From UHGV virus genome UHGV-0385297: DNA of 64,000 nt; one strand, given 5' to 3'. The stretch is from a virus. Shown here piece after piece: positions 2,237 to 62,671 of the stretch. Both the position numbers and the translations under genes were made by a program. Under the pieces are notes generated by a model. It was not told the origin of the DNA. It searched no databases and was given only the letters and a program-made list of their open reading frames with translations. The stretch's first letter is position 1. Every line of letters begins with the position of its first letter.

Positions 2237-2715
2237 TTTCTCACTTCCTTTACCCAAAAAATAAAAAGAAGCGAGATAGCAGTAAAATATATCACTTCTT
2301 TATAAATAAATATTCTATACTGAACAAAATTGCGTTTTCCGCAACTTTTTTAAAATGCGCAAATTTTATTTTTATACCACGTTGTCCGATATTTTCACAA
2401 ATGTCCGATTATCCACCATTACATTGCTCCTTTTGGTGGATATTCGGACAAATCAAATACTTGATTTTTACTAATATATCAATGTTTTTTTGAGTTTTTT
2501 TGCGAATCGTTACCTCTATACACTCTATTACTTATTATTAGCGTTAGCCACATAGCTTTTCTTTTTCTGATTCTGACGTTCTAATGCGGCTATGCCGCTT
2601 CTTTTTATAAATACCATTTTGAAAATAAGTGTAATTTTTTACACCTTTTCGCTCTAAAAGGTGTAAATATATACACCTACAATGAAGACTTTTTATAGTA
2701 TTTTAAGTAAAAATC

Positions 2716-3475: not shown

Positions 3476-3607
3476 CTCCATTCATTTGATATAATTGCAC
3501 ATCACTCGCAAGAGTGGTGTGCGAGGATTGAGCCTCTGGCTCGATCCTATAGTGCCACAGGCACATACTTAGTTATTTTCCATTTCATAAATAAAACTTT
3601 GAATTAA

Positions 3608-3691
3608 TGGGTAGAGCAGGAGTCGAACCTGCGGTGTTTCTGATGTAACCGATTTACAGTCGGTTGCCCTCGCCTCTAGGCACATCTACCC
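3608..3691 (-). tRNA. tRNA-Tyr (anticodon GTA), long variable arm
   Basis: The acceptor is GGGTAGA/TCTACCC. The anticodon arm is ACCGA-cTGTAaa-TCGGT and the T-arm is GCAGG-TTCGACT-CCTGC. Confidence 0.7.
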
Positions 3692-3766
3692 AAATTATAA
3701 GAGTGCGTAGCCATAATAGACCACGCACCCATACACAAAAAGACTAATGAATTTTCATATCTAAAA

Positions 3767-11070: not shown

Positions 11071-11143
11071 TGAATCCGGTTGGAATCGAACCAACGACAT
11101 AGGGATTTTCAGTCCCTTACTCTACCAACTGAGCTACAGATCC
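11071..11143 (-). tRNA. tRNA-Phe (anticodon GAA)
   Basis: A 73-nt cloverleaf: acceptor GGATCTG/CGGATTC, D-arm GCTC..GAGT, anticodon loop cTGAAaa, T-arm GTTGG-TTCGATT-CCAAC. Confidence 0.75.
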
Positions 11144-11170
11144 GTGCAACGGGTGTCTTACCCGAAAGAA

Positions 11171-11243
11171 TAGCGGGAGCTGGATTTGAACCAGCGTTCT
11201 CTAGGTTATGGGCCTAGTGACTTATCCTCTTGTCCATCCCGCA
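11171..11243 (-). tRNA. tRNA with anticodon CAT (Met or Ile2), atypical
   Basis: The anticodon arm is CTAGG-CCCATAA-CCTAG and the T-arm is GCTGG-TTCAAAT-CCAGC. Positions 1-72 look unpaired (T/T) and position 33 is C. Confidence 0.55.
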
Positions 11244-11321
11244 ATAATTTTATATATGGCTGGATATGTTTACACATATAATTCCATTTAACAGCCCACA
11301 GGCTGACCATGTATGTAATTT

Positions 11322-12140: not shown

Positions 12141-12372
12141 AAATTATTTCCTTCCTACGCATTTGGGCAGCGCATCACCACATACAATATTTACAGTTAC
12201 TTGCCGATAACTCTTGTTATCTTATGAGAGATGACTGCGGCAACAATCATCTCGTAAAGAAATATTTATGCAAAACAGAGGTAATCACCTCTCATAAAAC
12301 AACAAGTTATTGTACGAATTTCTATTAATATATTCTCTCTTTCACACATGGAAAATTTTTGAGAATTATGAT

Positions 12373-12446
12373 AGCGAGATAAAGGAATCGAACCGATATA
12401 TCTCCGCATTAAAAGTACGGCGCTCTACCTTTTGAGCTAATCTCGC
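12373..12446 (-). tRNA. tRNA-Lys (anticodon TTT), weak T-stem
   Basis: Acceptor GCGAGAT/ATCTCGC and D-arm GCTC..GAGC are good. The anticodon arm is CCGTA-cTTTTaa-TGCGG. The T-loop GGTTCGATTCC is present but its stem pairs poorly, so this may be a pseudo-tRNA. Confidence 0.5.
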
Positions 12447-12898
12447 CAGACGCCAATAGGCATACTACAGGACGCAGTACACCCATCAGCAAAAGAAAAA
12501 ATATAGAAGAAAGGGTAAAACATATGAATATCTACATCTAAAATTTTAAGTAGCCATAGCAGCCAAGTACAAATCTTTACGGCAATTACATAACCCGCAT
12601 ATAAACTTTCTCCTGGATTTGATAAAATTTTAAAATTTATACATTGAACTTTAGAAGAAAAAGAAGTTTGAAAAATGAGTTTTAAACATTGAATTCTGAG
12701 CTTTGAACTTTTATCATCTTATGTAATATACTATTACAAAATATATTATTTGATAAAAATTTGCATTAGGCGCACAATTTTCTTCAAATTCCAATATTTA
12801 TTAACCTTTTAAGGAATATCTTCCTCTCCGTGATAACCCGCACGGAGAAACGGGATGTAAGTTCAAGATTTTCGCTATAACTACAAAAATATCACATT

Positions 12899-13531
12899 TT
12901 AAAAACTTACTTCGATGAAAGAAGTAGCATTACTCAGAGTAAGCTGAGAGTCAATGTTACTTAAGAAACCATCAATGTCTGCTTCAAGTTTCTGGATCTT
13001 ATCATAAAGATCAATCGGGTCTACAAACTCATATTCGTTCTGTAAACGATATGGTTTTACTACTGCATCCTGTTCCTCAGTAGTGAGTTTCTTAGCGCTG
13101 TCTTTACCAACTAAGGTAGTAAGCAGACTATCCACTTTTTCGTCTACCTTTTTGTTCTCTTTATCAACTAAAGTAGTGGCAGCACTGTAATCCAGCTTCA
13201 TCTTGCGTAAAAGGTTCTGTTCGTACTCAATGGAATTTTTACGCTCAATGCCTTCTGCACGAGTCATTTCCACACCATTTACTGTAATCTTTGTAATAGC
13301 ATTGGATAATACAATTTTAGATTTTAACTCTGAATGATTTTTAATAAGATCGGTTGCAGATTGAAAATCTGCCTTGCATCTATCTTTAAATGTCTCTTTG
13401 GAAACGGCACCAATTCTATCGGATGATTTCTTAGCTGCACCACAAAAATTTGCGTTTACAATTGCTTTATTAATTCTTGCGTCTAATAATTTTAGTTCAG
13501 TTAAAGCTTCGGTAACTGTAATTTTTCTCAT
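12899..13531 (-). CDS. Hypothetical protein
   Basis: A 210-aa ORF with an AAAAGGAG RBS. Confidence 0.5.
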   Translation of the reverse strand: MRKITVTEALTELKLLDARINKAIVNANFCGAAKKSSDRIGAVSKETFKDRCKADFQSATDLIKNHSELKSKIVLSNAITKITVNGVEMTRAEGIERKNSIEYEQNLLRKMKLDYSAATTLVDKENKKVDEKVDSLLTTLVGKDSAKKLTTEEQDAVVKPYRLQNEYEFVDPIDLYDKIQKLEADIDGFLSNIDSQLTLSNATSFIEVSF

Positions 13532-13668
13532 AATGATATACTCCTTTTTATCCTGATTGCATTTTTAAACGACTGCATTGTGCCGATGTTACGATTAATT
13601 ACATTGTTTTCCATACCTGTTATATAACACCATAAAATCACTCAAAAATGGCGTAATTAAGCCAAAAA

Positions 13669-14532
13669 CTAAGCTTTTCTATTTGTGGTATTACGTTTTT
13701 CGTTATATTTTTTATATCTAATTAAATCATTTTTTCTCTTACACTCACCACAATACATTTTCTTATTTCCTGTTTTTTCAATCAGTGCGCCACATTGTTT
13801 ACAGCGAGTGTACTTATTATTGTGTCCACGCTTAACTCCATAATATTCTTTCTGATAATTTCGAATATAATAGGAAAGAGAACGATTTATGTACTTAACA
13901 TAGAAATGATCTTCAGTAATAAAATCAAAATTATTTACAAGCTTTGTCTTATCTTCATACTCGTCAATCAATTTACAATTGTCAAAACACTTTCTAAGAA
14001 AACCCTCAATTATGATTTTGTACTCGTTCCAGGAAAGGGTCATTTTTTCTTTCTGAAATCTTTCTTTCGTGGTTAAAGCTTTATCCATAATGTCATCTAT
14101 GACAGAAGTAGCATTTTCTTCGGTCATATCTACACCAGAAGCCCATTTGTAATACAATTGTTTTGGCTTTTTGAGCAAATCCATATATTCCTTATTTAGA
14201 ATTACTTCTTTATCAAAATATTTCGTATAAATATTATTTATTTTTTGCCTTATAATTGAACACCAATTTTGATTTTTGGAAACAGATTTATAGTATTTAT
14301 ATTCAATCATGGACCATGCATCAAATACTTGTCCAACTGGTGTTCCCAGTAAATTCTTTGCTACCTTAAATCGAATAGCTTTCTTATATGTTCTTCTTTT
14401 ATTTCCACATGACCAGATGGCGGAGCAGAACGAAGAGAAAACTTCGTCCTTTTGCTCCTGAGTCTGTAGTTCTTTGTATTTTTCTATAATTTCATATAGA
14501 AATGTTTCGTTACAGTCGTAAATATGTATCAC
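13669..14532 (-). CDS. Hypothetical protein with a C-terminal zinc ribbon
   Basis: It carries CKQCG...CGEC at the C-terminus. Its start overlaps the end of the polymerase gene by 23 nt. Confidence 0.5.
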   Translation of the reverse strand: MIHIYDCNETFLYEIIEKYKELQTQEQKDEVFSSFCSAIWSCGNKRRTYKKAIRFKVAKNLLGTPVGQVFDAWSMIEYKYYKSVSKNQNWCSIIRQKINNIYTKYFDKEVILNKEYMDLLKKPKQLYYKWASGVDMTEENATSVIDDIMDKALTTKERFQKEKMTLSWNEYKIIIEGFLRKCFDNCKLIDEYEDKTKLVNNFDFITEDHFYVKYINRSLSYYIRNYQKEYYGVKRGHNNKYTRCKQCGALIEKTGNKKMYCGECKRKNDLIRYKKYNEKRNTTNRKA

Positions 14533-17140
14533 CTACTTCAAATTCATAATATTTTCCAAGATATTCATAAGTATTATATGATTTGTATGGAACTTCTCGA
14601 ATAGAAATATTTCGCTTTGGATTAGTATTATTTTTTAAATTCTCAATAATATATTCTCCATAAGCAGCCCAAGCTAAAGATTTACTGATTGAAAGAGAAG
14701 AGTATGAAGTTGCAATAACATAATTGGCAATAACATCTTCGTCAAGTTTAAGTTTTTCAGAAATATTATCTTTATATTTCTTTACAACTTCGTCCATACT
14801 AAAATCATTATTTTCATCTTTATGTAAATTTAGATGCTGCTTTATTTCATCTGCATACATATTGATGAATTTCTTACACTCTTTAATGACTCCTTTATCT
14901 TTTAGATTAAGGTCATTGTTGACGATTAAGCATCTTGTATCTATAAGATCATTAACACTGTTATCCCATTTAATATTCTTTTTCTCCCATGTCTCGATGT
15001 ATTCACATAATTCATTCATAGGAGAAGGAGACCTATAGGCATTCAATTTTTCTTTCTCATCTGGTTCAACTCCCTTATTTTTACTAAGAATATTCTGATA
15101 CGTTTTCATTTTTTGAGGATAATTATGAAGCAAGAAATACGGTAGCTGTTTTAAATGTTTTCTCAGACCACTATTCATATGCCACCTAAAACCGGTTTTA
15201 AGAAAATCAATTTCTTTGCCCTGGAAAATTCTTAGAAGAGAAGAGGAATCAGAGTATAACTTCTGAATATCTGGATTTGTTGTATACCGATTCTCAATGC
15301 TTGTTGCTACATTGGTTATTTCACCAATACGGTTATCTCTTGTCATTACTTCATACTCAATTAAATTTTCTTTCGTATATGGTTTTGACTTTGCTGTAAC
15401 CTTATCTTCGACATCAAGAATAATATGTTTGTCAATTTTTGAACCAATAACAATTGGTTCGTTGCACAAAAAGAAAATATCCCCGTCAAAATCTGCCCCT
15501 CCCTGCTGCGGGGCAGATATATCATACATATTAAACATCACGACATCTTGATCTTTAAAATATCCGAACCATTTATTTAAAATGTCATTTCGCACAATTT
15601 GAATCTTGTTTACTTCAGATGGGTCCACAAGAGGAGATCTAAAAGAAGCACAATATCCTGGTTCAAAATTTGCAGTATATAATTCTCTTTCTTTTAAGCA
15701 ACCGACTGGATTTTCTCCGACTGCATATTGAAGATAACCAATCATATCACCAACACCTGTATGATAAAAACCAGAACAATAAATTTTTCCTACTTTTGCC
15801 TCATCAATGGATTTTTTTAATTTTCTATAAATAAACTGCTTTACTGCAGGATCCTTCAACATTACATCATTGATCAATGCTGCTTCGAGATATTTACTTT
15901 CTGGCTCATATCCATCTGTATCATTTATACCCATGAATTTGTAGGTATAAAATTTATCTCCTTTAATAATCTTCTCGAATAGGTTAGTAGTGTATTTTGC
16001 CAATTTGATGATTTTTCCATCATTGTCAGGATTTAAAACGTCATATTCTTTTCTATTTTTATCTACAAAACTATTGATGTATTTCTCATTCCATAGATCA
16101 AGACATTGTAAATACTGAAAATTCATTCTGGTGTACTTGTTTAAGTGCTTTACATGATGGCTATACTTACTAATACCTAATTTAAACTGATATTTCTGTA
16201 ATGTCTTCATATATTCAATCCATGCATCATTTCCATACTTTGATTTAAAAATCTTATGACCTTTAAACATTGAGATGTTCCAGATACAATCAATATCATC
16301 GATTTTATGCTCATATCCATAGATATCAGTAATAGTAGTGTATCCCCATTCCTTTAGAATTTGTTTAAATGGAACATATACGGAATATCCTTTTATAAAT
16401 GGCAGACGAACCTGGTTTCCAATAACGTCATAGCCTAAATCCAACTGTGTACTAACAGTTTTCATAAATTCTCTTTCATGACAACCACATCCATCAAAAG
16501 GAGATAATCCTATATCTCTTAAACCTTCTTCAATTTCTCTAACTTTATATTTTTTGGACTCACCAGTTTCTTTATCTACGAAAGTTTTTTCTTTTTCTAT
16601 GACATATTTGATAAGCTGATCATTTAAAGTTTTTTCATATTCACCGATGATAACAATATTTGGAATATAATCTTTAATGAGAGTACAGGAGCTAAACGGG
16701 AGACATCTTTGCGCTTCATATTTAGAAATAACGCACTCATCAATTTCAATATCCATTTGAGTGATCATGTATAATTCATCGAAAATTTCGTCACATACAA
16801 AAGCAGTAATACCGTCTTTTCCCTGAGATGCAGATTTTCCAAAACGAGAATAATGAGTACCGTTATACGTAAATCCATTATTAAGAATATCTCGCAGTGC
16901 GGTTTCTTGTTTTGGATTCTTTTTTGCGACTATAAGCATAAGCTCTTTAATATGTGTTGAAAATCTACCTCTTAGCCTTTGAATCTGATCAAACAATAAG
17001 GAATCACCTTGTTTAATAAGATATTCATTATCTATTTCTTCATTTTTACTTAGACTCAAATCATATTCTGAATCAATGAGTTTTTTGATTGGTAACTTAA
17101 CCAAAGTGTATTGAATTGATTTTATAATAAACACCACCAT
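14510..17140 (-). CDS. YonO-like single-subunit RNA polymerase candidate
   Basis: This 876-aa protein contains QQGGADFDGDIFF. ADFDGD is the invariant Mg-binding loop of multisubunit RNAP beta-prime and of the SPbeta-prophage YonO polymerase. Its size and its HU-like neighbour also fit YonO. Confidence 0.55.
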   Translation of the reverse strand: MVVFIIKSIQYTLVKLPIKKLIDSEYDLSLSKNEEIDNEYLIKQGDSLLFDQIQRLRGRFSTHIKELMLIVAKKNPKQETALRDILNNGFTYNGTHYSRFGKSASQGKDGITAFVCDEIFDELYMITQMDIEIDECVISKYEAQRCLPFSSCTLIKDYIPNIVIIGEYEKTLNDQLIKYVIEKEKTFVDKETGESKKYKVREIEEGLRDIGLSPFDGCGCHEREFMKTVSTQLDLGYDVIGNQVRLPFIKGYSVYVPFKQILKEWGYTTITDIYGYEHKIDDIDCIWNISMFKGHKIFKSKYGNDAWIEYMKTLQKYQFKLGISKYSHHVKHLNKYTRMNFQYLQCLDLWNEKYINSFVDKNRKEYDVLNPDNDGKIIKLAKYTTNLFEKIIKGDKFYTYKFMGINDTDGYEPESKYLEAALINDVMLKDPAVKQFIYRKLKKSIDEAKVGKIYCSGFYHTGVGDMIGYLQYAVGENPVGCLKERELYTANFEPGYCASFRSPLVDPSEVNKIQIVRNDILNKWFGYFKDQDVVMFNMYDISAPQQGGADFDGDIFFLCNEPIVIGSKIDKHIILDVEDKVTAKSKPYTKENLIEYEVMTRDNRIGEITNVATSIENRYTTNPDIQKLYSDSSSLLRIFQGKEIDFLKTGFRWHMNSGLRKHLKQLPYFLLHNYPQKMKTYQNILSKNKGVEPDEKEKLNAYRSPSPMNELCEYIETWEKKNIKWDNSVNDLIDTRCLIVNNDLNLKDKGVIKECKKFINMYADEIKQHLNLHKDENNDFSMDEVVKKYKDNISEKLKLDEDVIANYVIATSYSSLSISKSLAWAAYGEYIIENLKNNTNPKRNISIREVPYKSYNTYEYLGKYYEFEVGDTYLRL

Positions 17141-17183
17141 TCATAATTATTTCTTCTTATTTATTCTCCCTATTATCCTTAAT

Positions 17184-17603
17184 CTACTCAATTTTTTCAT
17201 ATGCGTATCCGTCATCTGTAGTATAGTAAACATGTTTTATTCCTATATCTCTAATAGCAGCCATACAAGATGGACAAGGTCGTGCCAGTTTAAACACACC
17301 CCCATATCCTGCACGGTATATGTACAGTTTTACCTTTGAGAAATTAATATCCATATCACGGATCGCCGCCAGACAATTTATTTCTGCATGAAGTCGAGGC
17401 AATGTTTTATAACCTTTGTCGTATTCAATATGTCTATATCTGTTATATTTTTTCTGTAATGGATGAGTTTTGACGGTATTACAACCGATAGAAATAATAG
17501 ATCCTTGATAGACGGCTACACAGCCTACATGAGTTTTATGATAATCGGATAGGAGAGCAGTTTGATAAGCTTTCTGAAAATATTTCTGATCTGTCTTAGT
17601 TAT
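17184..17603 (-). CDS. dCMP/cytidine deaminase
   Basis: Zinc ligands HAEINCL and PCPSCMAAI are present, together with VGCVAV. The start is uncertain (ATG 17603, or the longer TTG 17687). Confidence 0.75.
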   Translation of the reverse strand: MTKTDQKYFQKAYQTALLSDYHKTHVGCVAVYQGSIISIGCNTVKTHPLQKKYNRYRHIEYDKGYKTLPRLHAEINCLAAIRDMDINFSKVKLYIYRAGYGGVFKLARPCPSCMAAIRDIGIKHVYYTTDDGYAYEKIE

Positions 17604-17793
17604 CATGATTTTTTCTACTGTCTCTCTGTTTGGACCAAGCTTCACAAGATTTGTTGAAAGCAATATCTCGCATAAGGCATTCATCAATTTCTGTCATACT
17701 ATATGGATGACCGTATGCATTGCGCGCGATTACACCTCCAAATGTGTGCTGGTACTTATGGTTCTTTGATTCGATGGTTACTGTTGTGTTCAT
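17596..17793 (-). CDS. Small protein overlapping the deaminase start
   Basis: It is 65 aa with an AAAGGAGAAAT RBS. Its stop overlaps the deaminase ATG (ATGATAACTAA), which suggests translational coupling. Confidence 0.5.
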   Translation of the reverse strand: MNTTVTIESKNHKYQHTFGGVIARNAYGHPYSMTEIDECLMRDIAFNKSCEAWSKQRDSRKNHDN

Positions 17794-19382: not shown

Positions 19383-19958
19383 TTTAGGTACATCATCTTA
19401 TACCCAAAACTCGCTCTGTCAGATTTTAAAATAGAAGAGTAGCTTTACATGGTCTGAAGTCCCCAATTTGGGTACATTTATATATACCTAAAATTCACTT
19501 TATCCAACTAAAGCAAAAATACGTTTAGGTACATGTAGGATATACCCAAAAGTGTAAAATTCCTTCATTTGGGTACATGCCAGCTATCACTTTTGTGCAG
19601 TCCATATCAAGATAGACTCATATATATCAAGAGAAGAGTATTGTACATTCACAATAAATTGTTCATGTACGATTACGGGCTTCGCCCTATATTTTGTTCT
19701 CTCTTTTTCTTTCTCTCCATTTGTTTTCTTCCTTTTGATATTTGGGTACATATATGTGTACCTATCTGCAGGTTTCTTTCTTCTTGTTTATTTTCTCTAT
19801 TTGGGTACATAGTTTATATACCTAAAATGAGTGGAAAAATAATAATATGTTCTTTAAATTGATTTCTTATGTATTTTTTTCATCTTTCTTTTATCCATTT
19901 CCACCTATTTTCACCTAAAACAGATTCGTATCCTCTTTCTTTTAAGATTTGGGTACAT
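19383..19958. repeat. Array of at least seven TTT(G/A)GGTACAT 11-mers, four with an inverted half-site (TACC(C/T)AAAA) 5-8 bp downstream
   Basis: Copies lie near 19383, 19465, 19523, 19569, 19737, 19800 and 19948. Further copies are at 20630 and 24118. Confidence 0.8.
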
Positions 19959-23520: not shown

Positions 23521-23662
23521 CATATGTTTGCTTATTGACTGTGAGCTATGATAGTTTTTTAAACTTTTACATGTAGTATTGATAACTACATGTAATGATA
23601 TTTAATACTATAAGAGGTAGTTCGACAGTGAAAAAATAATATCGAAAAAATTAAAATTGTTA

Positions 23663-23691
23663 TTGACAATCACACTATCATGTGATATATT
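23663..23691 (+). promoter_or_regulatory. Consensus promoter with a TCACA-N6-TGTGA operator in its spacer
   Basis: TTGACA, a 17-nt spacer (atcacactatcatgtga) and TATATT. Confidence 0.7.
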
Positions 23692-23763
23692 ATAGTCAAG
23701 TTCATAAAGAACGACAGCGGGAACGCTGTTATAGCACTTTTAAAAGTTTTTAGAAAAAAGTGC

Positions 23764-23792
23764 TTGACAATCACATGAACGTGTGATATAGT
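23764..23792 (+). promoter_or_regulatory. Second tandem promoter with the same operator
   Basis: TTGACA, a 17-nt spacer (atcacatgaacgtgtga) and TATAGT. Confidence 0.7.
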
Positions 23793-55630: not shown

Positions 55631-56182
55631 ATGCAATACATAATAACTAATGGTGAGAAATATTTAAAACAGAATCCTCAAGCTGGATATTTGGTTGTGG
55701 ATAATTTTAGTGATGCATCGATATGGCAAGTAAAAGAAAAGGCAAACAATGTAATAAAAACCTGTCCATTATGTAGGACTTATGATATGGAAACCATTGA
55801 ACTTACAACAAATGATATTGAAGATACTCCTATCAACTATGATTTAGAAGAAAAGATAGGAGAAATTGAACGGTTTACGGAACAACTTCAAAGCCGAAGA
55901 ATTATACTTCTAAAGTTGATACAGAGAGAAGATTTAAAAATTGTAGACATAGAACATGTTGCTGAGTTTAAAAATTTAGGAGCTGCGGCTGGCTATAAGA
56001 TTTACAAATTACTACATGACTGCAAATGCAGAAGAAGGGATTATAAAAATGAGCTGAGGCAGATAGATGGTATTCTTGGTAAAACATTAAATGCAAAAGG
56101 AATTATATGTATGAAAAAAGCAATAAAAAGTGTACAGGAACAGAAATATGAGCCTCGGATTTTAAAAGAATTATTTCAGTAA
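55631..56182 (+). CDS. Hypothetical protein
   Basis: RBS TCGGAGGTAAAT. Confidence 0.55.
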   Translation: MQYIITNGEKYLKQNPQAGYLVVDNFSDASIWQVKEKANNVIKTCPLCRTYDMETIELTTNDIEDTPINYDLEEKIGEIERFTEQLQSRRIILLKLIQREDLKIVDIEHVAEFKNLGAAAGYKIYKLLHDCKCRRRDYKNELRQIDGILGKTLNAKGIICMKKAIKSVQEQKYEPRILKELFQ

Positions 56183-56194
56183 AGGAGAATGATT

Positions 56195-57196
56195 ATGGAA
56201 GAGAAAAGTAGATATGCAACAAAGAAAAAAGGTAAAACAGAAGTTCAGCCATTATGGAATATGGAAGATATTAAAGCGGTTATAGAATGGTTTGAGAAAA
56301 AAGAAGATTGGGATGGATATTTTATCACCATGTTAGAGCTTCTTCTTGGTAGACGTATTGGTGATACTATCTCTATGAAGTGGTCTGATCTGTATTATGA
56401 AAACGGAAAGAGAAAAGAAGCAATTAACACTATTGTAGAGCAGAAGACAGGTAAAGTCACTGAACTGCCAGTAAGTCATATGACATATGAAGCAATGGAT
56501 ATTTATTTGGACCATACCGGCATTAATCCAATGCAGCATTATGATGAGTTTATTTTTAAATATGAAGCGAAAACTGCATGGGTTCAGCGTTATGATAATC
56601 CTGTGTATGATAATACAGACATAGAAGAATGGTGCAGATTCTTAGGAAAGGATTTTACGGAAGATCGTAAACAGAAAATTTTAAAGGATTTTGAAAAGCA
56701 AAAGGAGTATAAAACATTAGGTGGTTATTTGTATTATGAAGTAGAATGGAATGACATTGTAAAGTGGCAGTCTGATGATTATAGGAAGAAACTAAAACAG
56801 GCTGCGAAAGCTATTGGTATCACAACTCCAGTCAGTACGCATAGCCTTCGGAAGTCGCTAGGATACTGGGTGTATAAAATGCATATGTTCGATCCTAACT
56901 GTTTGCTGACATTACAGAAGCTCTTTAATCATGCAGATCTTCAGACAACTATAATTTATATTGGTTTAGTGGAGGAACAGAAGAGAAGATATTTGGAAGA
57001 TCATGGAGAGTTCATTAAGAACGTCCTGGCTGGCAAGGGAGATGAAATCATCAAAAACATGCCGGTCATTTCATTAAAATCAAACGACTTTGGAAATGTA
57101 ATTATGAATGTTATCAAGGGAATGCAGGAAGGCAAAGAAGCAGTTGAGGTTTACCAGATTGCTATTAACATGGCAAATGAGAAGCGAATTGCGTAA
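56195..57196 (+). CDS. Tyrosine recombinase (second copy)
   Basis: R in LLGRRIGDTIS, then HSLRKSLG, then LQKLFNHADLQTTIIYI with the Tyr. RBS AAGGAG. Confidence 0.7.
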   Translation: MEEKSRYATKKKGKTEVQPLWNMEDIKAVIEWFEKKEDWDGYFITMLELLLGRRIGDTISMKWSDLYYENGKRKEAINTIVEQKTGKVTELPVSHMTYEAMDIYLDHTGINPMQHYDEFIFKYEAKTAWVQRYDNPVYDNTDIEEWCRFLGKDFTEDRKQKILKDFEKQKEYKTLGGYLYYEVEWNDIVKWQSDDYRKKLKQAAKAIGITTPVSTHSLRKSLGYWVYKMHMFDPNCLLTLQKLFNHADLQTTIIYIGLVEEQKRRYLEDHGEFIKNVLAGKGDEIIKNMPVISLKSNDFGNVIMNVIKGMQEGKEAVEVYQIAINMANEKRIA

Positions 57197-57209: not shown

Positions 57210-57695
57210 CTATTTTTTAGCATCGCTTAATTCCTTAATCTGTTCTATTAGCTTATCATATTTATCAGCTGATATAACAACATGTCGGCGCATAAAAGAG
57301 TGTACTATTTGGTTTGCAACGTCTTGAGCTATCTGCGCCATTTTTTCTTCATCTTTTGTATCGACATTTACTTTTATAGGAGTGCTTGGATCATTCGGAT
57401 TATTTAAACTAACAGTAAATGTTGATTCTTGAGATTTTTCTTTTGGATGGTCGATGTCAAAAACAATGTCAGGTGAATCGCACCATTTTGTTATATCATC
57501 ATTAATAAGAATATCATTTGGCGTACAGTGAAAAGTATTACATAAAGAAGTAAGGACATCGAAATTTATTCGTGTCGTTTCACTAGAGTATAATTGTTTT
57601 GCAGGATTATAATTTACACCTATTGCCTTAGCAAATTTGTTGATATTACCGTCAAACATGACATCTACATATTTTTTTATATTAAGTCTATACAT
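57210..57695 (-). CDS. XRE-family HTH regulator
   Basis: The HTH is INKFAKAIGVNYNPAKQLYSSETTRINFDVLTSL. It is transcribed divergently from the MazF-like gene and converges on the recombinase gene. Confidence 0.65.
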   Translation of the reverse strand: MYRLNIKKYVDVMFDGNINKFAKAIGVNYNPAKQLYSSETTRINFDVLTSLCNTFHCTPNDILINDDITKWCDSPDIVFDIDHPKEKSQESTFTVSLNNPNDPSTPIKVNVDTKDEEKMAQIAQDVANQIVHSFMRRHVVISADKYDKLIEQIKELSDAKK

Positions 57696-57721
57696 GCATA
57701 ACCTCTATATAAAAGAGAAAA

Positions 57722-57786
57722 TTAACGTCTACAATAACAGTATACAATAAAAAAGTGAAAAAGTAAATTAATGTCTACAATAACAC
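57722..57786. repeat. Two direct copies of TTAA(C/T)GTCTACAATAACA plus an inverted ATTGTAGA flanking the -35
   Basis: The direct copies are at 57722-57739 and 57769-57786; 57769 forms TCTACAAT..ATTGTAGA around the promoter. Confidence 0.7.
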
Positions 57787-57815
57787 TTGACATTAATTGT
57801 AGAGTGTAATATACT
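57787..57815 (+). promoter_or_regulatory. Promoter of the MazF-like gene
   Basis: TTGACA, a 17-nt spacer, and TATACT. The track's TTG start coincides with the -35 element and is therefore not a start codon. Confidence 0.55.
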
Positions 57816-57861
57816 AAAATTGTTCAAAGAAATGAATACTAAAGGAAAGGAGGATGCAGAA

Positions 57862-58540: not shown

Positions 58541-58569
58541 TTGACAGAACAAATGTTCGGCTATATAAT
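58541..58569 (+). promoter_or_regulatory. SOS-controlled promoter with a LexA box (AGAACAAATGTTCG) in its spacer
   Basis: TTGACA, 17 nt, TATAAT; the second box sits at 58546-58559. Confidence 0.55.
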
Positions 58570-58870: not shown

Positions 58871-59638
58871 GTGATTTTTATTAGTTCAAGAGCGTTAGTT
58901 GATAACTATTCAAAAGAAGAATTAGAAAAAATTGTTACTAATTCATTTTCTATGGCAGAAGTTATTGAAAAATTGGGATATAAAACAAGAAATGGAAGTA
59001 ATTTTAAAACAATTTTGAAACGAATTAAAGAATACAATATTAATTGTGATCATTTTAGAGTTCCTGAAAGAGTTGTAAGAACTTTTGAAAATACATTTTG
59101 TAAAGATAGTACCGCAAGTCAAAATACATTAAGAAGTGCTTTTATAAAAATAAGTGATAATACTTTTTGTAAAATATGTGGACAATCAAATATATGGAAT
59201 GACAAAGAACTTACAATGATTTTGGATCATATCGATGGGAATAATCATAATAATGTGATTAATAATTTAAGATGGATATGTCCCAATTGTAATAGTCAGT
59301 TACCGACCTTTGCTGGTAGAAATTTAAAAGAGAGAAAATCTCAAATTGATGGAAAAATAAAATATGTTCCAATGATAAAAAGAAAAAAGAACATGAAAAT
59401 ATGTCCTATTTGTAATATAAACGAAATTTCTATGAATAGTAAAATGTGTCTTGAATGTTATAACAAAGACAGAAGGAAAAACATTCCTCCAAAAGAAGAA
59501 TTAGAAAAATTAATATACATAAAATCTTTTGTAGAAATTGGCAAGAAATATAATGTTACAGATAATGCGGTAAGAAAATGGTGCAAATCTTATGGATTGC
59601 CGTTCAGATATGGTGAATTACATAAATATGGAGCCTAA
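58871..59638 (+). CDS. HNH endonuclease (homing type)
   Basis: LDHIDGNNHNNVINNLRWICPNCN is an HNH motif. The start codon is unclear; GTG 58871 abuts the AAGGAG sequence. Confidence 0.65.
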   Translation: MIFISSRALVDNYSKEELEKIVTNSFSMAEVIEKLGYKTRNGSNFKTILKRIKEYNINCDHFRVPERVVRTFENTFCKDSTASQNTLRSAFIKISDNTFCKICGQSNIWNDKELTMILDHIDGNNHNNVINNLRWICPNCNSQLPTFAGRNLKERKSQIDGKIKYVPMIKRKKNMKICPICNINEISMNSKMCLECYNKDRRKNIPPKEELEKLIYIKSFVEIGKKYNVTDNAVRKWCKSYGLPFRYGELHKYGA

Positions 59639-59686
59639 TTACATTACAAATCACACAATCGGTGGTCAATAAAAGACTGCCGGTAT

Positions 59687-59760
59687 GGATCGTTAGCTCA
59701 GTTGGTTAGAGCAATCGGCTCATAACCGATCGGTCACAGGTTCAAGTCCTGTACGATCCA
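59687..59760 (+). tRNA. tRNA with anticodon CAT (Met or Ile2 type)
   Basis: A 74-nt cloverleaf: acceptor GGATCGT/ACGATCC, D-arm GCTC..GAGC, anticodon arm ATCGG-cTCATaa-CCGAT, T-arm ACAGG-TTCAAGT-CCTGT. Confidence 0.75.
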
Positions 59761-59786
59761 TTGACGAAAAAGGAGGGAAAAGGAAA

Positions 59787-60401
59787 ATGGACTATGTAAT
59801 CAGAAATAATAGGGGAGTTTATATCAAAATCGATTCAGGTGGTAGACCTGTCTCATGCAATTTCAAAGATAGAACACTGATGGATCGCAACAAAGCAAGA
59901 AATGTTTTAAATTCGCTTCCAAAACATATGAAGAAAATGAAATTCTTCATGGAAGCCATTCCTGAAATCCCTCCGAGAGTAATTGAGACGCCACAGACGT
60001 ATAAACCATCTGAGAATATTACTCGTTGGGTGGAACAATTTGGAACCTGCGGAGATATTTTCAACTCGGCTGTAAAACGAAGCAATGAGCTGATCGGTAT
60101 TCTGTATGATCTTGATAAGGGATTGCTCAATATCCTTCATTCAATCGAGATTGAGAAGCCGAAAGATTTATATACAGGCTGGCAGCTCTATAAGGCTATC
60201 CGTGAAAACCGTACTCAGCGTAGAGAAACAAAAGATGAAATCCAGATTATCCAGAATGTTCTGACGAATATCAATCCAGAATGTGTTCAACGTGAACGGA
60301 TTCAAAAAGCCGTGGATGGACTTTTCCATAGAAAATATACATATCGAATCATCGAAGGAAACGAAGATGATGAGAGTGAAACAGAAATACATAACAATTA
60401 G
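59787..60401 (+). CDS. Hypothetical protein
   Basis: RBS AAAGGAGGGAAAAGG. Confidence 0.55.
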   Translation: MDYVIRNNRGVYIKIDSGGRPVSCNFKDRTLMDRNKARNVLNSLPKHMKKMKFFMEAIPEIPPRVIETPQTYKPSENITRWVEQFGTCGDIFNSAVKRSNELIGILYDLDKGLLNILHSIEIEKPKDLYTGWQLYKAIRENRTQRRETKDEIQIIQNVLTNINPECVQRERIQKAVDGLFHRKYTYRIIEGNEDDESETEIHNN

Positions 60402-60412
60402 GTAGGTTCAAT

Positions 60413-62671
60413 ATGGGGAAAGTAGAAAAAATAAATCTGAATGAAAAACAGATGGAATTAGTTACATATTATTCTGAAAATGATATGGCGAGATTAAAAC
60501 GGATTTGTAATCCAATCATTAATATGAAGAACGTAGATCAGAAGGATTATGATGACTTGTACAGTGATGCACTGAAAGTTCTTCTGGAAAGTGTTCAGAC
60601 ATTTGATGAAACAGCAGATTGTTCCTTTAATACATTTCTTACAGGAAATATTAAACGGTCATTCTATGATTGGAGCCGTGATCAGCTGACTTGGAAGCGG
60701 TGCAACCTGGAATATGAAACAGATGAAAATGGAGAGATTAAAAAAGATAAGAATGGAAAACCAATAAAAAAGAAAGTCTATGATGTTTCTATGGATGTTC
60801 CATTGGAAGATGGATCTGATTTAAGAGAAAAAATCCCGTCCAATTTCAGTGTAGAGACAGAACTTGGATTAAATGGAGATGATACTGTAGAAAAGGTAAA
60901 TATACTTCTTGATAGTATGCCACGGTTACAGAAGCAAATTACTATTTTGAAAATGAGGAAAGTTCCTGTAGAAAAAATTAAGAAGATCTTAAATATATCG
61001 CAAAGCGATTATGAAAACGCAGTAGAGCGGATTAAGAGAAATGAAAATATGGAAATGTTTTTAAAAGACACGAAATATAATATGGAGGAATATAATATGA
61101 AAGACAGAGTAATTGCTATTAGCGAATCCGAAGATTACAGAATGGACAAATTACCAATGTTCACATTATTGCAGCAGAAAAAAGATGGTGACATTAACTG
61201 TAAATACATTTTACAGAGAAAACCATTTCAGTGGTCAGAAGAAGAAGCGAATCGTTATTTCTGTAGAATATTAAGTTCTCTTCCTGTTCCTGAAATCGTT
61301 TTATGTGAGCAAAAAGTAAAGGAATTGATTATTGCATATTTAATTGATGGTTTACAGCGTTTATCTTATGCGGAGGCATTTAGAAATAATCGTATTAAAA
61401 TTGGAAGTGTAGGTGCAGAAAGACACTTAATTGAATATAGAGAATATTCTTTAGACGAAAACGGAAATCGAATTTTAGATGACAACGGATTTCCAACCTA
61501 CGAATTAAAAATATGTGATGTTATTGGAAAATACTACAAAGATCTTCCTGATGAATTAAAAAAGAGATTTGATGTATTTAATTTCAATGTGACTAAGTTT
61601 TTTAACTGCACGGATCAGCAAATTGCGGATCACCTTCGCGACTACAACAACCACTCATCTATGAACAAGGAGCAGTTGGGACTGACCAAGATTACTACCG
61701 TAACAGCTGGGAAAATTAAGAAAATCTCTGAGAAGAATATGTTTTTCAAAAATTGCTGTAAAATCACTACAACTAATGAGACTAAAGGTAAACTGGAACG
61801 TGTAGTTGCCGAAGCAATTATGCTTTTGTTCCATAAGGACGATTGGAAAGCTAAATTGGAAAATGCCTATAAGTATGTAGATGAAAATGCAACAGACGAA
61901 GAGTTTGAACAGCTTAATTCTGATTTAAACCGTTTGGAATTAGCAATTGGAGAAAATAATAAGGAAGTTACCAAGTTATTTACTCCAGCTGCTATTCCTA
62001 TGTGGGTGGCGGTATTCAATGAGTTTACAAAGTATAACATTGAAGATAGCAGATTTGTAGACTTCCTTAATGCATATGTAACCGATTTAAAGGATCGTAC
62101 AGTAGATGGTGTAAGCATGAAAACTTTTAAATCAGAACAGAGTAAAAAGAGAACTACCATCATGGGAAAGATCAATCTGTTGGTTACTCTTATGAAAGAT
62201 TATTTACATATTGAAGATACAGAAGAAACAGAAAATACATATGAAGAAACAACTGATGAAAAAGTAACTGAAAACGAGAATAATACAGTAGAAGAGACAA
62301 CAGAAGATAATGTTACTACAGAAGAAATGGAATCAGTAGTAACTGAATCACAGTCAGAAGAAGATCATGAGTTACAGTTCGTAAAAGAGGTAGCTGATCC
62401 AAATGTAGAACAGGAAGATATTGAACTGTATAAGGATTTTATTGATGACTATCTTAAGTTAGACTCCTGTGTATACAAAGTTGGTATGCCGGTATTGTTA
62501 GCACTTATGGCATATGCTTGTAATGCAGAGAAAGACGAAGAGTTTAGTGAATGGCTCAATGAAATGGAAAAACAGCATAGAATTTTCACAGGTTCAGAGA
62601 AAGATAATTATGAGAAGTTGAAAGCAGAATTTCTTCAGTTTTTAGATTCTCATAACAATAAAGCAGCATAA
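60413..62671 (+). CDS. Sigma-70 family (region 2 plus region 4) N-terminal domain fused to a DUF262 (ParB/sulfiredoxin-fold) domain and a long C-terminal extension
   Basis: Region 2 reads DDLYSDALKVLLESVQTFDETADCSFNTFLTGNIKRSFYDWSRDQ and region 4 reads LQKQITILKMRKVPVEKIKKILNISQSDYENAVERIKRN. From about aa 250 comes KLPMFTLLQ...QRKPFQWSEEEANRYF...IAYLIDGLQRLS, the DUF262 DGQQRLT-type signature. The C-terminal 400 aa are acidic and helical. Confidence 0.55.
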   Translation: MGKVEKINLNEKQMELVTYYSENDMARLKRICNPIINMKNVDQKDYDDLYSDALKVLLESVQTFDETADCSFNTFLTGNIKRSFYDWSRDQLTWKRCNLEYETDENGEIKKDKNGKPIKKKVYDVSMDVPLEDGSDLREKIPSNFSVETELGLNGDDTVEKVNILLDSMPRLQKQITILKMRKVPVEKIKKILNISQSDYENAVERIKRNENMEMFLKDTKYNMEEYNMKDRVIAISESEDYRMDKLPMFTLLQQKKDGDINCKYILQRKPFQWSEEEANRYFCRILSSLPVPEIVLCEQKVKELIIAYLIDGLQRLSYAEAFRNNRIKIGSVGAERHLIEYREYSLDENGNRILDDNGFPTYELKICDVIGKYYKDLPDELKKRFDVFNFNVTKFFNCTDQQIADHLRDYNNHSSMNKEQLGLTKITTVTAGKIKKISEKNMFFKNCCKITTTNETKGKLERVVAEAIMLLFHKDDWKAKLENAYKYVDENATDEEFEQLNSDLNRLELAIGENNKEVTKLFTPAAIPMWVAVFNEFTKYNIEDSRFVDFLNAYVTDLKDRTVDGVSMKTFKSEQSKKRTTIMGKINLLVTLMKDYLHIEDTEETENTYEETTDEKVTENENNTVEETTEDNVTTEEMESVVTESQSEEDHELQFVKEVADPNVEQEDIELYKDFIDDYLKLDSCVYKVGMPVLLALMAYACNAEKDEEFSEWLNEMEKQHRIFTGSEKDNYEKLKAEFLQFLDSHNNKAA

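Follow-up and report, generated by a model that had tools for sequence, protein, structure and literature searches.

Locus and gene neighbourhood

The window, by which we mean the whole 64,000-nucleotide stretch of viral DNA that was analysed, carries on its plus strand a single 752-aa ORF at 60413..62671, which starts with ATG and agrees exactly with the ORF list. Based on this list and on its homologues, the whole ORF encodes a fusion of a sigma factor with an NsnA-like DUF262 protein.

A conserved partner gene of 204 aa (59787..60401, plus strand), identified by synteny and without a recognised domain, lies 11 nt before the fusion gene. In most viral loci, a homologue with 26-47% identity occupies the position immediately upstream, as it does in GenBank MT835469 (E=4.4e-9) and in two loci in which the sigma and DUF262 parts are separate genes (L075/L076, E=2.9e-15). 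The 204-aa protein had no match in Pfam, PHROGs, NCBIfam or the PDB, and no annotated homologue. A paralogue (E=3e-9) is located at 55631-56182; this region was considered as a small GmrSD_N gene, a candidate rejected on the basis of that paralogy. Small DUF262 paralogues occur in relatives, and are absent from the window.

A divergent HTH-repressor/operator region lies ~3 kb upstream of the fusion gene. A tentative sigma-A-type promoter-like site, TTGACA-17-TATAAT, at 58541..58569 (plus strand) precedes the gene string HNH / tRNA-Met / 204-aa / fusion. It matches the consensus in 12/12 positions, and an 11/12 site occupies the equivalent position in a relative with 53% identity (L005 8582-8610); both are consensus matches only, and total site counts are not above shuffled expectation. 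A search of the window for a phage-specific dispersed promoter motif, by repeat families and k-mer enrichment in 52 intergenic regions, found none. Its sole products were 'GTAAAATA', which is the spacer between RBS and start, and a local array of inverted repeats at 19.4-19.8 kb (19383-19822), within a divergent control region.

The window phage also carries TA modules and integrases. In relatives, the genes downstream of the fusion include the defence-like SIR2, HNH and TerD. A PurA-like protein of relatives, potentially pointing to a 2-aminoadenine genome, scores far below both the PurA and the PurZ cutoffs.

Conservation of the fusion

The fusion is confirmed as a genuine, widely conserved protein of a large gut phage. 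We retrieved 896 homologues, the full-length ones with 53-98% identity, and the family comprises 680 clusters at 50% identity. The 90%-identity cluster of the fusion protein holds 161 member sequences from independent assemblies, and the same architecture recurs in independent ENA, Logan, JGI and IMG-VR assemblies. Furthermore, full-length homologues align without a break over the sigma/DUF262 junction, which is continuous and conserved, and a sigma-like N-terminal domain is common to 74 of the 75 long-form representatives (50% clustering). The fused clusters, 74 in number, reach down to ~25% identity, and MT835469 has the fused form at 27% identity. Across 59 viral contigs the fusion is a core gene with a fixed position.

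The sequence-only reading had proposed a sigma-DUF262 fusion in one frame, and had raised the concern that an assembly or frameshift artefact had merged two genes, an ordinary one for sigma and another for DUF262. Split forms do occur in other lineages. Nevertheless, because of the 161-member cluster, the unbroken junction alignment and the sigma-like domain of the long forms, the join is genuine and not artefactual. The conservation data, including the deeply divergent fused clusters and MT835469, rule this explanation out, with only a vanishing probability left to it. The same reading had known of no such fusion, and we likewise found no description of a sigma-DUF262 pairing in the literature that could be accessed and searched. 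Public databases label the family proteins only as “sigma factor” or “DUF262 protein”.

The sigma module

A first structure prediction, based on 17 close homologues, was poor (pLDDT 51) and was superseded by the model used here, which was built on a 74-sequence alignment. The Pfam scan of diverse relatives likewise covered 74 of the 138 representatives. In the model, the sigma and DUF262 folds are discrete, and are separated by a flexible linker at aa 218-241 (61064..61135), with pLDDT <50 for aa 221-232.

On the plus strand, sigma domain 2 with regions 2.1-2.4 spans aa 10-96 (60440..60700), and sigma domain 4, with its HTH (region 4.2), spans aa 156-217 (60878..61063). Between them, aa 97-155 (60701..60877) form a beta-hairpin insertion (DENGEIKKDKNGKP...), whose strands in the model are aa 98-101 and 119-122, and a region-3.2-like linker (VSMDVPLEDGSDLREKI). 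The profile of diverse relatives aligned this segment with a segment of SigA; no sigma3 domain is present. Both domains that characterise the Sigma-70 family are thus present, in the layout of ECF (group 4) factors: sigma2 and sigma4 only, without sigma3 or region 1.1.

Profile searches agree with the claim, made from the sequence alone, that sigma-70 regions 2 and 4 are recognisable in the first ~230 aa. Pfam Sigma70_r2 matches aa 42-91 with 24.5 bits, just above the gathering score of 24, and is also found in 17/17 close relatives. A match to PHROG_351 (“RNA polymerase sigma factor”) extends over aa 43-214 (E=1.4e-7), and the sigma70-ECF model TIGR02937 matches aa 40-208 (E=6e-8), at 32.5 bits and thus below its curated cutoff of 42.9. 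No Pfam region-4 match was obtained for the window protein itself, and Sigma70_ECF (PF07638) was matched by only 2/74 relatives. A profile of 74 diverse relatives matches solved sigma factors from sigma2 through sigma4, namely sigma-H (3mzy, E=1.4e-9), the ECF factor SigW (E=8.6e-6) and SigA (E=3e-5), and its alignment covers a region-3.2/4.1-like motif ('VS-LD-P...L-D-I', also written 'VS-D-P...L-E-I'). This motif belongs to the features specific to sigmas that thread through RNA polymerase, and its retention lends indirect support to the predicted binding of core enzyme and promoter-specific initiation. Judged by these matches, the N-terminal part is an ECF-like sigma2 + sigma4 factor. When searched alone against cultured phages, the sigma domain had no match.

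The sigma module is conserved far less than the sensor module, and only core hydrophobic residues and K95/R96 reach at least 80%. Such low conservation fits a promoter specificity that co-evolves with its targets, and equally a relaxed constraint.

The sensor module and the C-terminus

The ParB-fold DUF262 domain, also on the plus strand, covers aa 242-425 (61136..61687). It carries the three motifs that define the NTP pocket of DUF262 proteins (I, QRxxxW; II, DGxQR; III, FxxxN; PMC12065111): motif I at Q268 R269..W274 (nt 61214-61234), with one extra residue (QRxxxxW vs QRxxxW), motif II as DGLQR at aa 312-316 (nt 61346-61360), and motif III at N412 (nt 61646-61648). A hairpin insertion (aa 339-369) lies inside the domain. 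Over 74-138 diverse sequences the motifs are invariant or near-invariant. In the 74-sequence set, Q268, R269, D312, G313 and N412 are invariant, and W274, Q315 and R316 are at least 90% conserved. This strict conservation suggests an active enzyme or switch and not an inert mimic.

GmrSD_N (PF03235) was matched by 10/17 close and 54/74 diverse relatives (best E=7.7e-18), in line with the DUF262 hallmark noted earlier, whereas the window protein alone gave only a faint match over aa 268-421 (E=5.6; 7.4 bits vs GA 33.2). The DUF262 part is detectable only by fold searches and by Pfam/PADLOC profiles; a sequence search against the PDB had no match, even with the diverse profile. Fold matches to BrxU, SspE and ParB indicate a ParB/Srx-like fold, and Foldseek showed a weak resemblance to ParB-CDP structures. 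The PADLOC NsnA model was matched by 7/9 family members tested and by the homologue of Bacillus phage PJN02 (E=6.8e-26); the window protein itself had no PADLOC match. In one relative (P0163), aa 227-584 cover NsnA model positions 42-383/385 (E=3.7e-19).

The sequence-only reading had described the remainder as ~400 aa of acidic helical sequence. Instead, it consists of a conserved helical domain of ~175 aa, an acidic disordered linker of ~45 aa and a helical bundle of ~105 aa, all on the plus strand. The first (aa 426-600, 61688..62212) is all-helical with pLDDT >90 and, judged by the NsnA model coverage of relatives, the counterpart of “ParBDB”, the DNA-binding domain of NsnA/DndB/SspE, a concept from PMC12065111. 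The low-complexity linker (aa 601-646, 62213..62350; pLDDT <50 for aa 604-646) is indel-rich in the alignment and varies in length among relatives. The C-terminal five-helix bundle (aa 647-751, 62351..62665; pLDDT ~90-96) was found by phmmer in 70/150 representatives, in both fused and split architectures, and contains the near-invariant W714 (at least 90% conserved).

The comparison to GmrSD enzymes was misleading. None of the 74 relatives has a DUF1524/HNH nuclease, and the model of the fusion protein shows only helices in the C-terminal regions; therefore, the protein cannot on its own be a restriction enzyme. Among defined families, the nearest is NsnA, the Menshen sensor, which likewise has no nuclease. 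Genes for its partners NsnB and NsnC were found neither within +/-6-10 kb of the examined loci nor among the window ORFs scanned.

Split and fused forms

Immediately upstream of the sensor gene, which has its own RBS, 7/7 short-form loci carry a sigma gene that is separate and ends in its own stop. These are complete stand-alone sigma genes, and end at profile position ~190-194, which corresponds to the inter-module linker of the window protein. On the tree we counted ~11 architecture switches, compared with ~46 expected at random; therefore, the fused and the split arrangement both persist in related lineages, in a Rosetta-stone pattern. The sequence-only reading had suggested, as candidate roles, a sigma or anti-sigma decoy, a transcription-coupled DNA sensor or an anti-defence protein. 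As gene-arrangement evidence, the alternation favours a cooperating sigma/sensor pair, and predicts a physical and functional interaction of the two parts. In Bacillus Zhangjivirus phages, more distant homologues of the sensor module are solitary and have no sigma in their neighbourhood, thus the sensor module can act without sigma.

The YonO-type RNA polymerase

Among the phage's gene products is a single-subunit RNA polymerase of the YonO type (PF05183, E=1e-13), a homologue of SPbeta yonO. The sequence-only reading had called the phage's own polymerase sigma-independent. The polymerase is indeed present, but its sigma independence is an assumption, as PMC5467207 states that the need of YonO for host or phage factors in promoter recognition is unknown. 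In SPbeta, according to the same paper, transcription by YonO is confined to the late operon, with 37 late genes. Host RNA polymerase would therefore still be needed for the remainder, and it is no paradox that a phage sigma factor should act on it earlier. By analogy with SPbeta, this leaves room for a middle class of genes directed to host RNA polymerase. YonO is also described there as being without most msRNAP domains, so that the canonical sigma docking sites are probably absent.

YonO and the fusion occur together on at least five viral contigs, and in one of them (L010) the genes are ~2 kb apart. Between clades in which YonO is ~82% identical, the fusion is ~52% identical, thus nothing points to a tight co-evolution of the two. 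The fusion protein is absent from the cultured YonO phages (SPbeta, Enterocloster, Thomasclavelia), and is therefore dispensable for the YonO-phage lifestyle in general.

Relation to known systems

Menshen NsnA consists of ParB-DUF262 and ParBDB with variable N-terminal DNA-binding domains (PMC12065111). The central module of the fusion family fits the PADLOC NsnA model nearly end-to-end, and shares with NsnA the three DUF262 motifs, the missing nuclease and an extra N-terminal domain related to nucleic acids. Unlike NsnA, which belongs to a bacterial defence island, the fusion is a phage core gene without NsnB/NsnC partners, and has an additional acidic linker and C-terminal bundle. Moreover, the sigma-related N-domains of NsnA are only region-1.1-like, whereas the N-terminal module of the fusion is a complete sigma2 + sigma4 factor that also occurs as a separate gene. 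From the type IV restriction enzymes GmrSD, BrxU and SspE, the family differs by the nuclease missing in its 74 relatives.

ECF41/ECF42-type ECF (group 4) sigma factors bear fused C-terminal regulatory extensions, either SnoaL-like or TPR. They resemble the fusion in having sigma2 and sigma4 without sigma3 or region 1.1, and by analogy it is plausible that the attached non-sigma domain is an in-cis regulator replacing a separate anti-sigma factor. In contrast to them, the fusion is phage-encoded and scores below the TIGR02937 cutoff, and its extension is a predicted ParB/DUF262 NTP-binding DNA sensor of ~530 aa, which also occurs as a separate gene. In the late transcription of phage T4, the sigma-like gp55 (with gp33) is activated through the DNA-loaded sliding clamp gp45. 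The fusion would resemble this in concept only, as a phage sigma whose activity is tied to a loading or sliding module that is bound to DNA and depends on nucleotides; there is no sequence or fold relationship, and its DNA-binding module is ParB/DUF262-like and fused or adjacently encoded. ParB-fold regulators such as DndB and the ParB/KorB type repress via operator binding or sliding on DNA. They combine a ParB-fold nucleotide-binding domain with a DNA-binding domain and act on transcription, as predicted for the fusion, but to our knowledge none of them carries a sigma factor.

Function and alternative explanations

Our best explanation, to which we give about an even chance, is that the fusion gene encodes a phage transcription-initiation factor of two cooperating parts. 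Host sigma-A-type promoters next to the lysis/lysogeny switch would drive its early expression. The minimal ECF-like sigma part (sigma2, 3.2-like linker, sigma4) would bind host core RNA polymerase and redirect it to phage promoters. The NsnA-type sensor, made up of the ParB-fold DUF262 nucleotide-binding domain, the helical DNA-binding domain and the small helical bundle, would bind DNA in an NTP-dependent manner and so target or gate sigma in cis, a direction of regulation that we infer. Sigma might, for instance, be licensed solely where the DNA belongs to the phage or is in a particular state. The two parts would act in sister phages as the products of separate, adjacent genes. The fused sensor may take the role of a cognate anti-sigma factor, and a third component is probably supplied by the conserved ~204-aa protein of the adjoining upstream gene. 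Against this explanation speak the weakly conserved sigma module, the TIGR02937 score below cutoff, the lack of a Pfam region-4 match in the window protein, the promoter motif missing from the window, the cultured YonO phages without the fusion protein and the sensor homologues without sigma.

In a more far-reaching and rather doubtful version, the sigma/NsnA-like pair and the 204-aa protein would form a new initiation device. Here, the NTP-gated ParB-fold sensor would recognise the template by its identity or state (phage vs host DNA, modification, replicating or injected DNA) and license sigma only there; as a variant, the device would be the missing promoter-specificity factor of YonO.

The own YonO-type polymerase, the poorly conserved DNA-reading surfaces of sigma, the lack of a phage-specific promoter motif in the window and the early position adjoining the switch would also suit a host-takeover decoy. 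Its sigma-like domain would dock on host core RNA polymerase and, instead of initiating, sequester or mislocalise it, with DUF262 as a DNA tether; host transcription would be shut off and the YonO-like polymerase would take over. However, >70 clusters (50% identity) have kept the 3.2-like linker together with the folds of sigma2 and sigma4, a pure core-binding decoy would not need the sigma4 HTH, and a YonO that covers only 37 late genes, as PMC5467207 has it for SPbeta, would leave host RNA polymerase needed otherwise. We consider the decoy unlikely. Somewhat less probable still is a promoter-specificity factor serving the YonO-like polymerase in place of host RNA polymerase. The factor need left unsettled in PMC5467207 and the shared contigs would allow it, but the cultured YonO phages do without the fusion protein, YonO itself probably has no sigma docking sites, and the two proteins diverge to different degrees between clades.

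We attach a similarly low probability to a defence or superinfection-exclusion sensor, a Menshen-like NsnA whose N-terminal “sensor” slot is filled by a sigma-like domain and whose effectors are encoded elsewhere. The closeness to NsnA, the many alternative N-terminal DNA-binding domains of NsnA proteins (PMC12065111), and in relatives the downstream defence-like genes and small DUF262 paralogues agree with this role. Yet no NsnB (ABC-ATPase/DUF3696) or NsnC adjoins any examined locus, the 74 relatives have no nuclease domain, the gene holds a fixed core position and not one in a variable island, and the N-terminal part is, when split, a complete sigma gene, unlike the region-1.1-like domains reported for NsnA. 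An anti-defence decoy, a phage DUF262 copy titrating or poisoning host DUF262-based immunity (Menshen, GmrSD, SspE, Dnd), could be expected from the homology to defence sensors, the early-region location and the nuclease-less DUF262 proteins of many viruses. It is improbable, as it leaves the obligatory association with sigma, fused or adjacent, unexplained, and the strictly conserved NTP-pocket motifs suggest an active enzyme or switch. Least probable among these functional roles is a ParB-like partition or replication-origin protein for phage-genome maintenance, with sigma4 as site-specific HTH. The ParB fold, the inverted-repeat array as a purely putative binding site and a temperate lifestyle with TA modules are in its favour; on the other hand, no ParA partner was seen, the integrases point to chromosomal integration, and a full sigma2 domain is superfluous for centromere binding.

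Biological significance

Sigma factors and ParB/DUF262 nucleotide switches have both been studied intensively, and the link between them is undescribed. Here, this link takes the form of a large family (hundreds of clusters) and of a core gene in abundant, uncultured, temperate human gut phages of 100-200 kb. It bears on the temporal transcription programme of YonO-encoding phages. Gating or targeting of sigma by the sensor would, if it occurs, amount to a new principle by which RNA polymerase is sent to a particular DNA molecule, and DUF262/NsnA-type sensors would gain a role outside immunity. Should licensing hold true, these phages would discriminate self from non-self at the level of promoter recognition.

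Results

The 752-aa ORF that the sequence-only reading described as a sigma factor fused to a DUF262 domain is a real fusion, and both domain calls were correct. In the ORF listing it occupies the expected position, 60413..62671 (+), with an ATG start, an AGGTAGG ribosome-binding site and a 204-aa ORF (59787..60401) 11 nt upstream. A word-indexed search returned 896 homologues, and an exhaustive search of 50%-identity representatives matched 680 clusters, of which 212 have E-values under 1e-30. Full-length homologues (709-752 aa, 53-98% identity) come from ENA, Logan, JGI and NCBI assemblies, with contigs of up to 932 kb, and 161 sequences fall into the 90%-identity cluster of the fusion. The proposed metagenome search for the same fusion found the full-length gene in at least 59 viral contigs of IMG/VR, mostly of 90-215 kb. 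GenBank MT835469, a 176-kb faecal phage, carries a fused form with 27% identity. The homologue alignment is unbroken across the junction between the sigma and DUF262 parts, which, together with the independent assemblies and the 161-member cluster, rules out a frameshift or assembly artefact. An artificial joining of two genes is refuted, with practically no probability left to it.

The first ~230 aa had been read as a sigma-70 domain, and profile matches agree. In the fusion protein by itself, aa 42-91 match Pfam Sigma70_r2 (24.5 bits, gathering score 24), PHROG_351 "RNA polymerase sigma factor" spans aa 43-214 (E=1.4e-7), and NCBIfam TIGR02937 (sigma70-ECF) spans aa 40-208 (E=6e-8). The architecture is ECF-like, yet this last match, at 32.5, is below the curated cutoff of 42.9. 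Sigma70_r2 is matched by all 17 close homologues. Furthermore, a profile of 74 diverse relatives significantly matches solved sigma factors across both sigma domains, namely sigma-H (3mzy, E=1.4e-9), the ECF factor SigW (E=8.6e-6, residues 29-176) and SigA (E=3e-5), and the family segment "VS-LD-P...L-D-I" aligns with the region 3.2/4.1 segment of SigA.

The DUF262 domain is faint in the fusion protein alone (PF03235, E=5.6, aa 268-421) and is borne out by the relatives, as GmrSD_N is matched by 10 of the 17 close and 54 of the 74 diverse homologues (best E=7.7e-18). The nucleotide pocket of DUF262 proteins is marked by the motifs QRxxxW, DGxQR and FxxxN (PMC12065111). All three are conserved: five positions (Q268, R269, D312, G313, N412) show no variation across 74 sequences, and three more (W274, Q315, R316) are at least 90% conserved. 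For the whole module, the nearest PADLOC family is NsnA, the sensor of the Menshen defence system. The NsnA model was matched by seven of nine family members tested and by a homologue in Bacillus phage PJN02 (E=6.8e-26). In one relative's protein (P0163), aa 227-584 span model positions 42-383 of 385 (E=3.7e-19). This near-full coverage implies that the module includes the helical "ParBDB" domain, a DNA-binding domain of NsnA, DndB and SspE (PMC12065111). A DUF1524/HNH nuclease is present in none of the 74 relatives.

A first AlphaFold2 model from a shallow alignment was poor (pLDDT 51), whereas the model from the 74-sequence alignment is confident (mean pLDDT 87.7, pTM 0.63). It resolves sigma2 (aa 10-96), a beta-hairpin and linker (aa 97-155), sigma4 (aa 156-217), a disordered linker (aa 221-232) and an alpha/beta DUF262 domain (aa 242-~425). 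The 400 aa of acidic helical sequence noted earlier exist as a stretch but not as a single region, being divided into a helical domain (aa ~426-600), an acidic disordered linker (aa 604-646) and a five-helix bundle (aa 647-751). Foldseek matches to the model include ParB-CDP structures and, in BFVD, a full-length 753-aa gut-virome homologue (E=5.7e-40) labelled merely "DUF262 domain-containing protein". By motif, profile and fold, the family belongs with DUF262 proteins and resembles NsnA.

A hairpin insertion in the sigma linker (aa 103-125, nt ~60719-60787), DENGEIKKDKNGKPIKKKVYDV, closely resembles DENGNRILDDNGFPTYELKICDV, a hairpin insertion within the DUF262 domain (aa 347-370, nt ~61451-61522). 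The former also occurs in the stand-alone sigmas of split forms. The two are possibly a shared interaction or DNA-contact element.

Among the best 150 of the 680 representatives, long forms (700-780 aa) and short forms (470-550 aa) are about equally frequent, the short forms matching only aa 240-750. With an iterated profile, the N-terminal domain was found in 74 of 75 long forms, and the N-terminal extension is absent from all 72 genuine short forms. Genomic contexts were retrieved for five short-form representatives at seven loci, and every locus has a separate 207-220-aa sigma gene immediately upstream, homologous to the fusion N-domain (E=1e-46 to 1e-56). This sigma gene is closed by a stop codon, and the sensor gene, which lies in another frame in some loci, is preceded by a separate GGAGG-type ribosome-binding site and begins with its own ATG. 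Gene order is that of the window: integrase-like, opposite-strand HTH, PemK/MazF, small ORF, ~203-241-aa gene, sigma, sensor. A neighbour-joining tree built on the central module shows ~11 architecture changes, some of which may reflect fragmentary proteins, against ~46 for shuffled labels. Sigma and sensor thus form a conserved two-gene module that became fused, and stayed so, in many lineages. In distant homologues from Bacillus Zhangjivirus-type phages, no sigma lies within 8 kb and the sensor module stands alone.

The 204-aa protein is probably a third component. Homologues occupy the same place in most viral loci (26-47% identity), in split-form loci (E=2.9e-15) and in MT835469 (E=4.4e-9). 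Searches of Pfam, PHROGs, NCBIfam and PDB gave no match for it, and its homologues are likewise without domain annotation. Its gene (59787-60401 (+)), directly upstream of the fusion, has a paralogue at 55631-56182 (+) (25% identity, E=3e-9), upstream of the integrase-like gene. At that position relatives have a small DUF262 protein instead (172-180 aa; 412 aa in the locus L073).

The window comes from a large temperate phage, of which it covers the non-structural part. As had been proposed, the phage encodes its own RNA polymerase, a YonO-like single-subunit enzyme (14510-17140 (-), 876 aa; PF05183 E=1e-13, phrog_8308). Its homologues include SPbeta yonO and, under the annotation "RNA-dependent RNA polymerase", genes in phages of Thomasclavelia and Enterocloster and in C. 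botulinum phage c-st. The enzyme keeps ~82% identity between phage clades that share only ~52% in their sigma-DUF262 proteins. Tyrosine recombinases lie at 1283-2257 (-) and 56189-57196 (+), the latter adjoining the HTH/PemK switch region, a position conserved across clades; in this it may resemble the integrase-like repressors of SPbeta-type phages. Also encoded are Ant-type anti-repressors, an exonuclease, homing endonucleases, a PhoH/PIN protein, a DnaN-like clamp, a C5 cytosine methyltransferase, and HicB and PemK modules. Six tRNA genes (two Met, Ser, Tyr, Phe, Lys) lie at 59686-59761 (+) and at 705-789, 3607-3692, 11071-11143, 11170-11244 and 12372-12447 (-); one tRNA-Met is 25 nt upstream of the 204-aa gene, in the same gene string as the fusion. 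The hosts are likely, if tentatively, Lachnospiraceae, based on MAG binning: the sole match in GTDB representative genomes was a Lachnospira MAG contig, and a Lachnospiraceae MAG is the labelled source of one of the homologues of the 204-aa protein.

Some 3 kb upstream of the fusion gene is a divergent region with an opposite-strand HTH gene, which looks like a genetic switch. Two 39-nt direct repeats (57712-57750 and 57758-57796, 82% identical) in the gap that separates the minus-strand HTH gene (57210-57695) from PemK/MazF are probably operators of a lysis/lysogeny switch. A promoter-like TTGACA-17-TATACT site (57787-57815) overlaps the second repeat and would place the PemK gene start downstream of the listed TTG, near 57832. 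Upstream of the fusion gene, a perfect sigma-A-type consensus (58541-58569) has an 11/12 counterpart in the corresponding position of a relative with 53% identity; these sites, simple matches to a consensus, suggest early transcription by the host RNA polymerase. An HNH homing endonuclease (58871-59638 (+), phrog_10822 E=2.5e-38), found in only some near-identical relatives, is a mobile insertion that separates the switch region from the tRNA, 204-aa and fusion genes.

Elsewhere, the inverted-repeat site GGTAYA-N6-7-TGTACCYAAA has five full copies at 19383-19822 (-) (none expected in shuffles), and several TGTACC(C/T)AAA half-sites extend the array to 20930. It lies within 1.6 kb of ORF-poor sequence where the GC skew switches between divergent gene arms, and may represent iterons/origin, operators or a centromere-like array. 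Where the plus-strand arm begins, two TTGACAATCACA...GTGATATA copies (23653-23689 and 23754-23790, 101 nt apart) combine a promoter with a palindromic operator-like sequence. Downstream of the fusion, relatives have a variable cargo spot (12756-15448 in locus L001 and 13282-18616 in L005). One relative carries SIR2 and RRXRR-HNH proteins there, and another clade has a P-type cation ATPase, three TerD proteins and one resembling PspA; a CCA-adding enzyme and RlaP occur as well. In a relative's locus, L002, the gene for a 365-aa adenylosuccinate-synthetase-like protein (16614-17711) lies ~6.6 kb downstream of the fusion and so outside the window; the protein scores far under the cutoffs for PurA (99 against 402 bits) and PurZ (41 against 300 bits). 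If PurZ-like, it would make 2-aminoadenine phage DNA possible, a point that would matter for a sigma that senses DNA.

Discussion

In its workings the fusion resembles two known kinds of protein, the sigma factors and the DUF262 proteins, and in part it belongs to them. Its known relatives in kind are sigmas with fused regulatory domains and NsnA-type sensors with variable N-terminal modules. The likeness has limits: an ECF-like architecture is combined with a sub-cutoff ECF score, the GmrSD nuclease is missing, and the central module resembles NsnA but the fusion loci lack the Menshen operon and its partner genes. The sequence-only reading knew of no sigma-DUF262 fusion, and our searches of the open literature likewise found no description of DUF262 with sigma, of ParB-like sigma fusions, or of both Pfam accessions together. 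Sigma is not mentioned in the GmrSD phylogenomics paper, and the sigma-related NsnA N-termini of the Menshen survey are region-1.1-like domains only (PMC12065111).

The N-terminal part would be a working ECF-like sigma that redirects the host core RNA polymerase, and the NsnA-like module, with its nucleotide pocket intact, would bind DNA and target or gate the sigma. We give this model about an even chance. Retention of sigma2, a 3.2-like linker and sigma4 over more than 70 deep clusters argues for threading into a multisubunit RNA polymerase rather than for a generic HTH. The model is weakened by three observations: no dispersed phage promoter motif emerged within the window, evolution of the sigma domain has been far more rapid than that of the sensor, and cultured YonO phages lack the fusion protein. 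A decoy for the host RNA polymerase is unlikely. At least five contigs carry both the fusion and the YonO-like polymerase genes, and the YonO paper leaves factor dependence open (PMC5467207); a specificity factor for that polymerase is nevertheless quite improbable. The boldest reading, either template-state-gated transcription initiation or such a factor, is doubtful.

A Menshen-like defence sensor, which would need remote effectors, has a slim chance, an anti-defence decoy is slimmer still, and a ParB-like maintenance protein, which the ParB-CDP fold matches bring to mind, is the most far-fetched of these. The alternation between fused and split genes is a classical signature that the two work together, and it strengthens the case for a functional sigma-sensor pair. 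In split lineages, the sensor would target or gate the sigma in trans.
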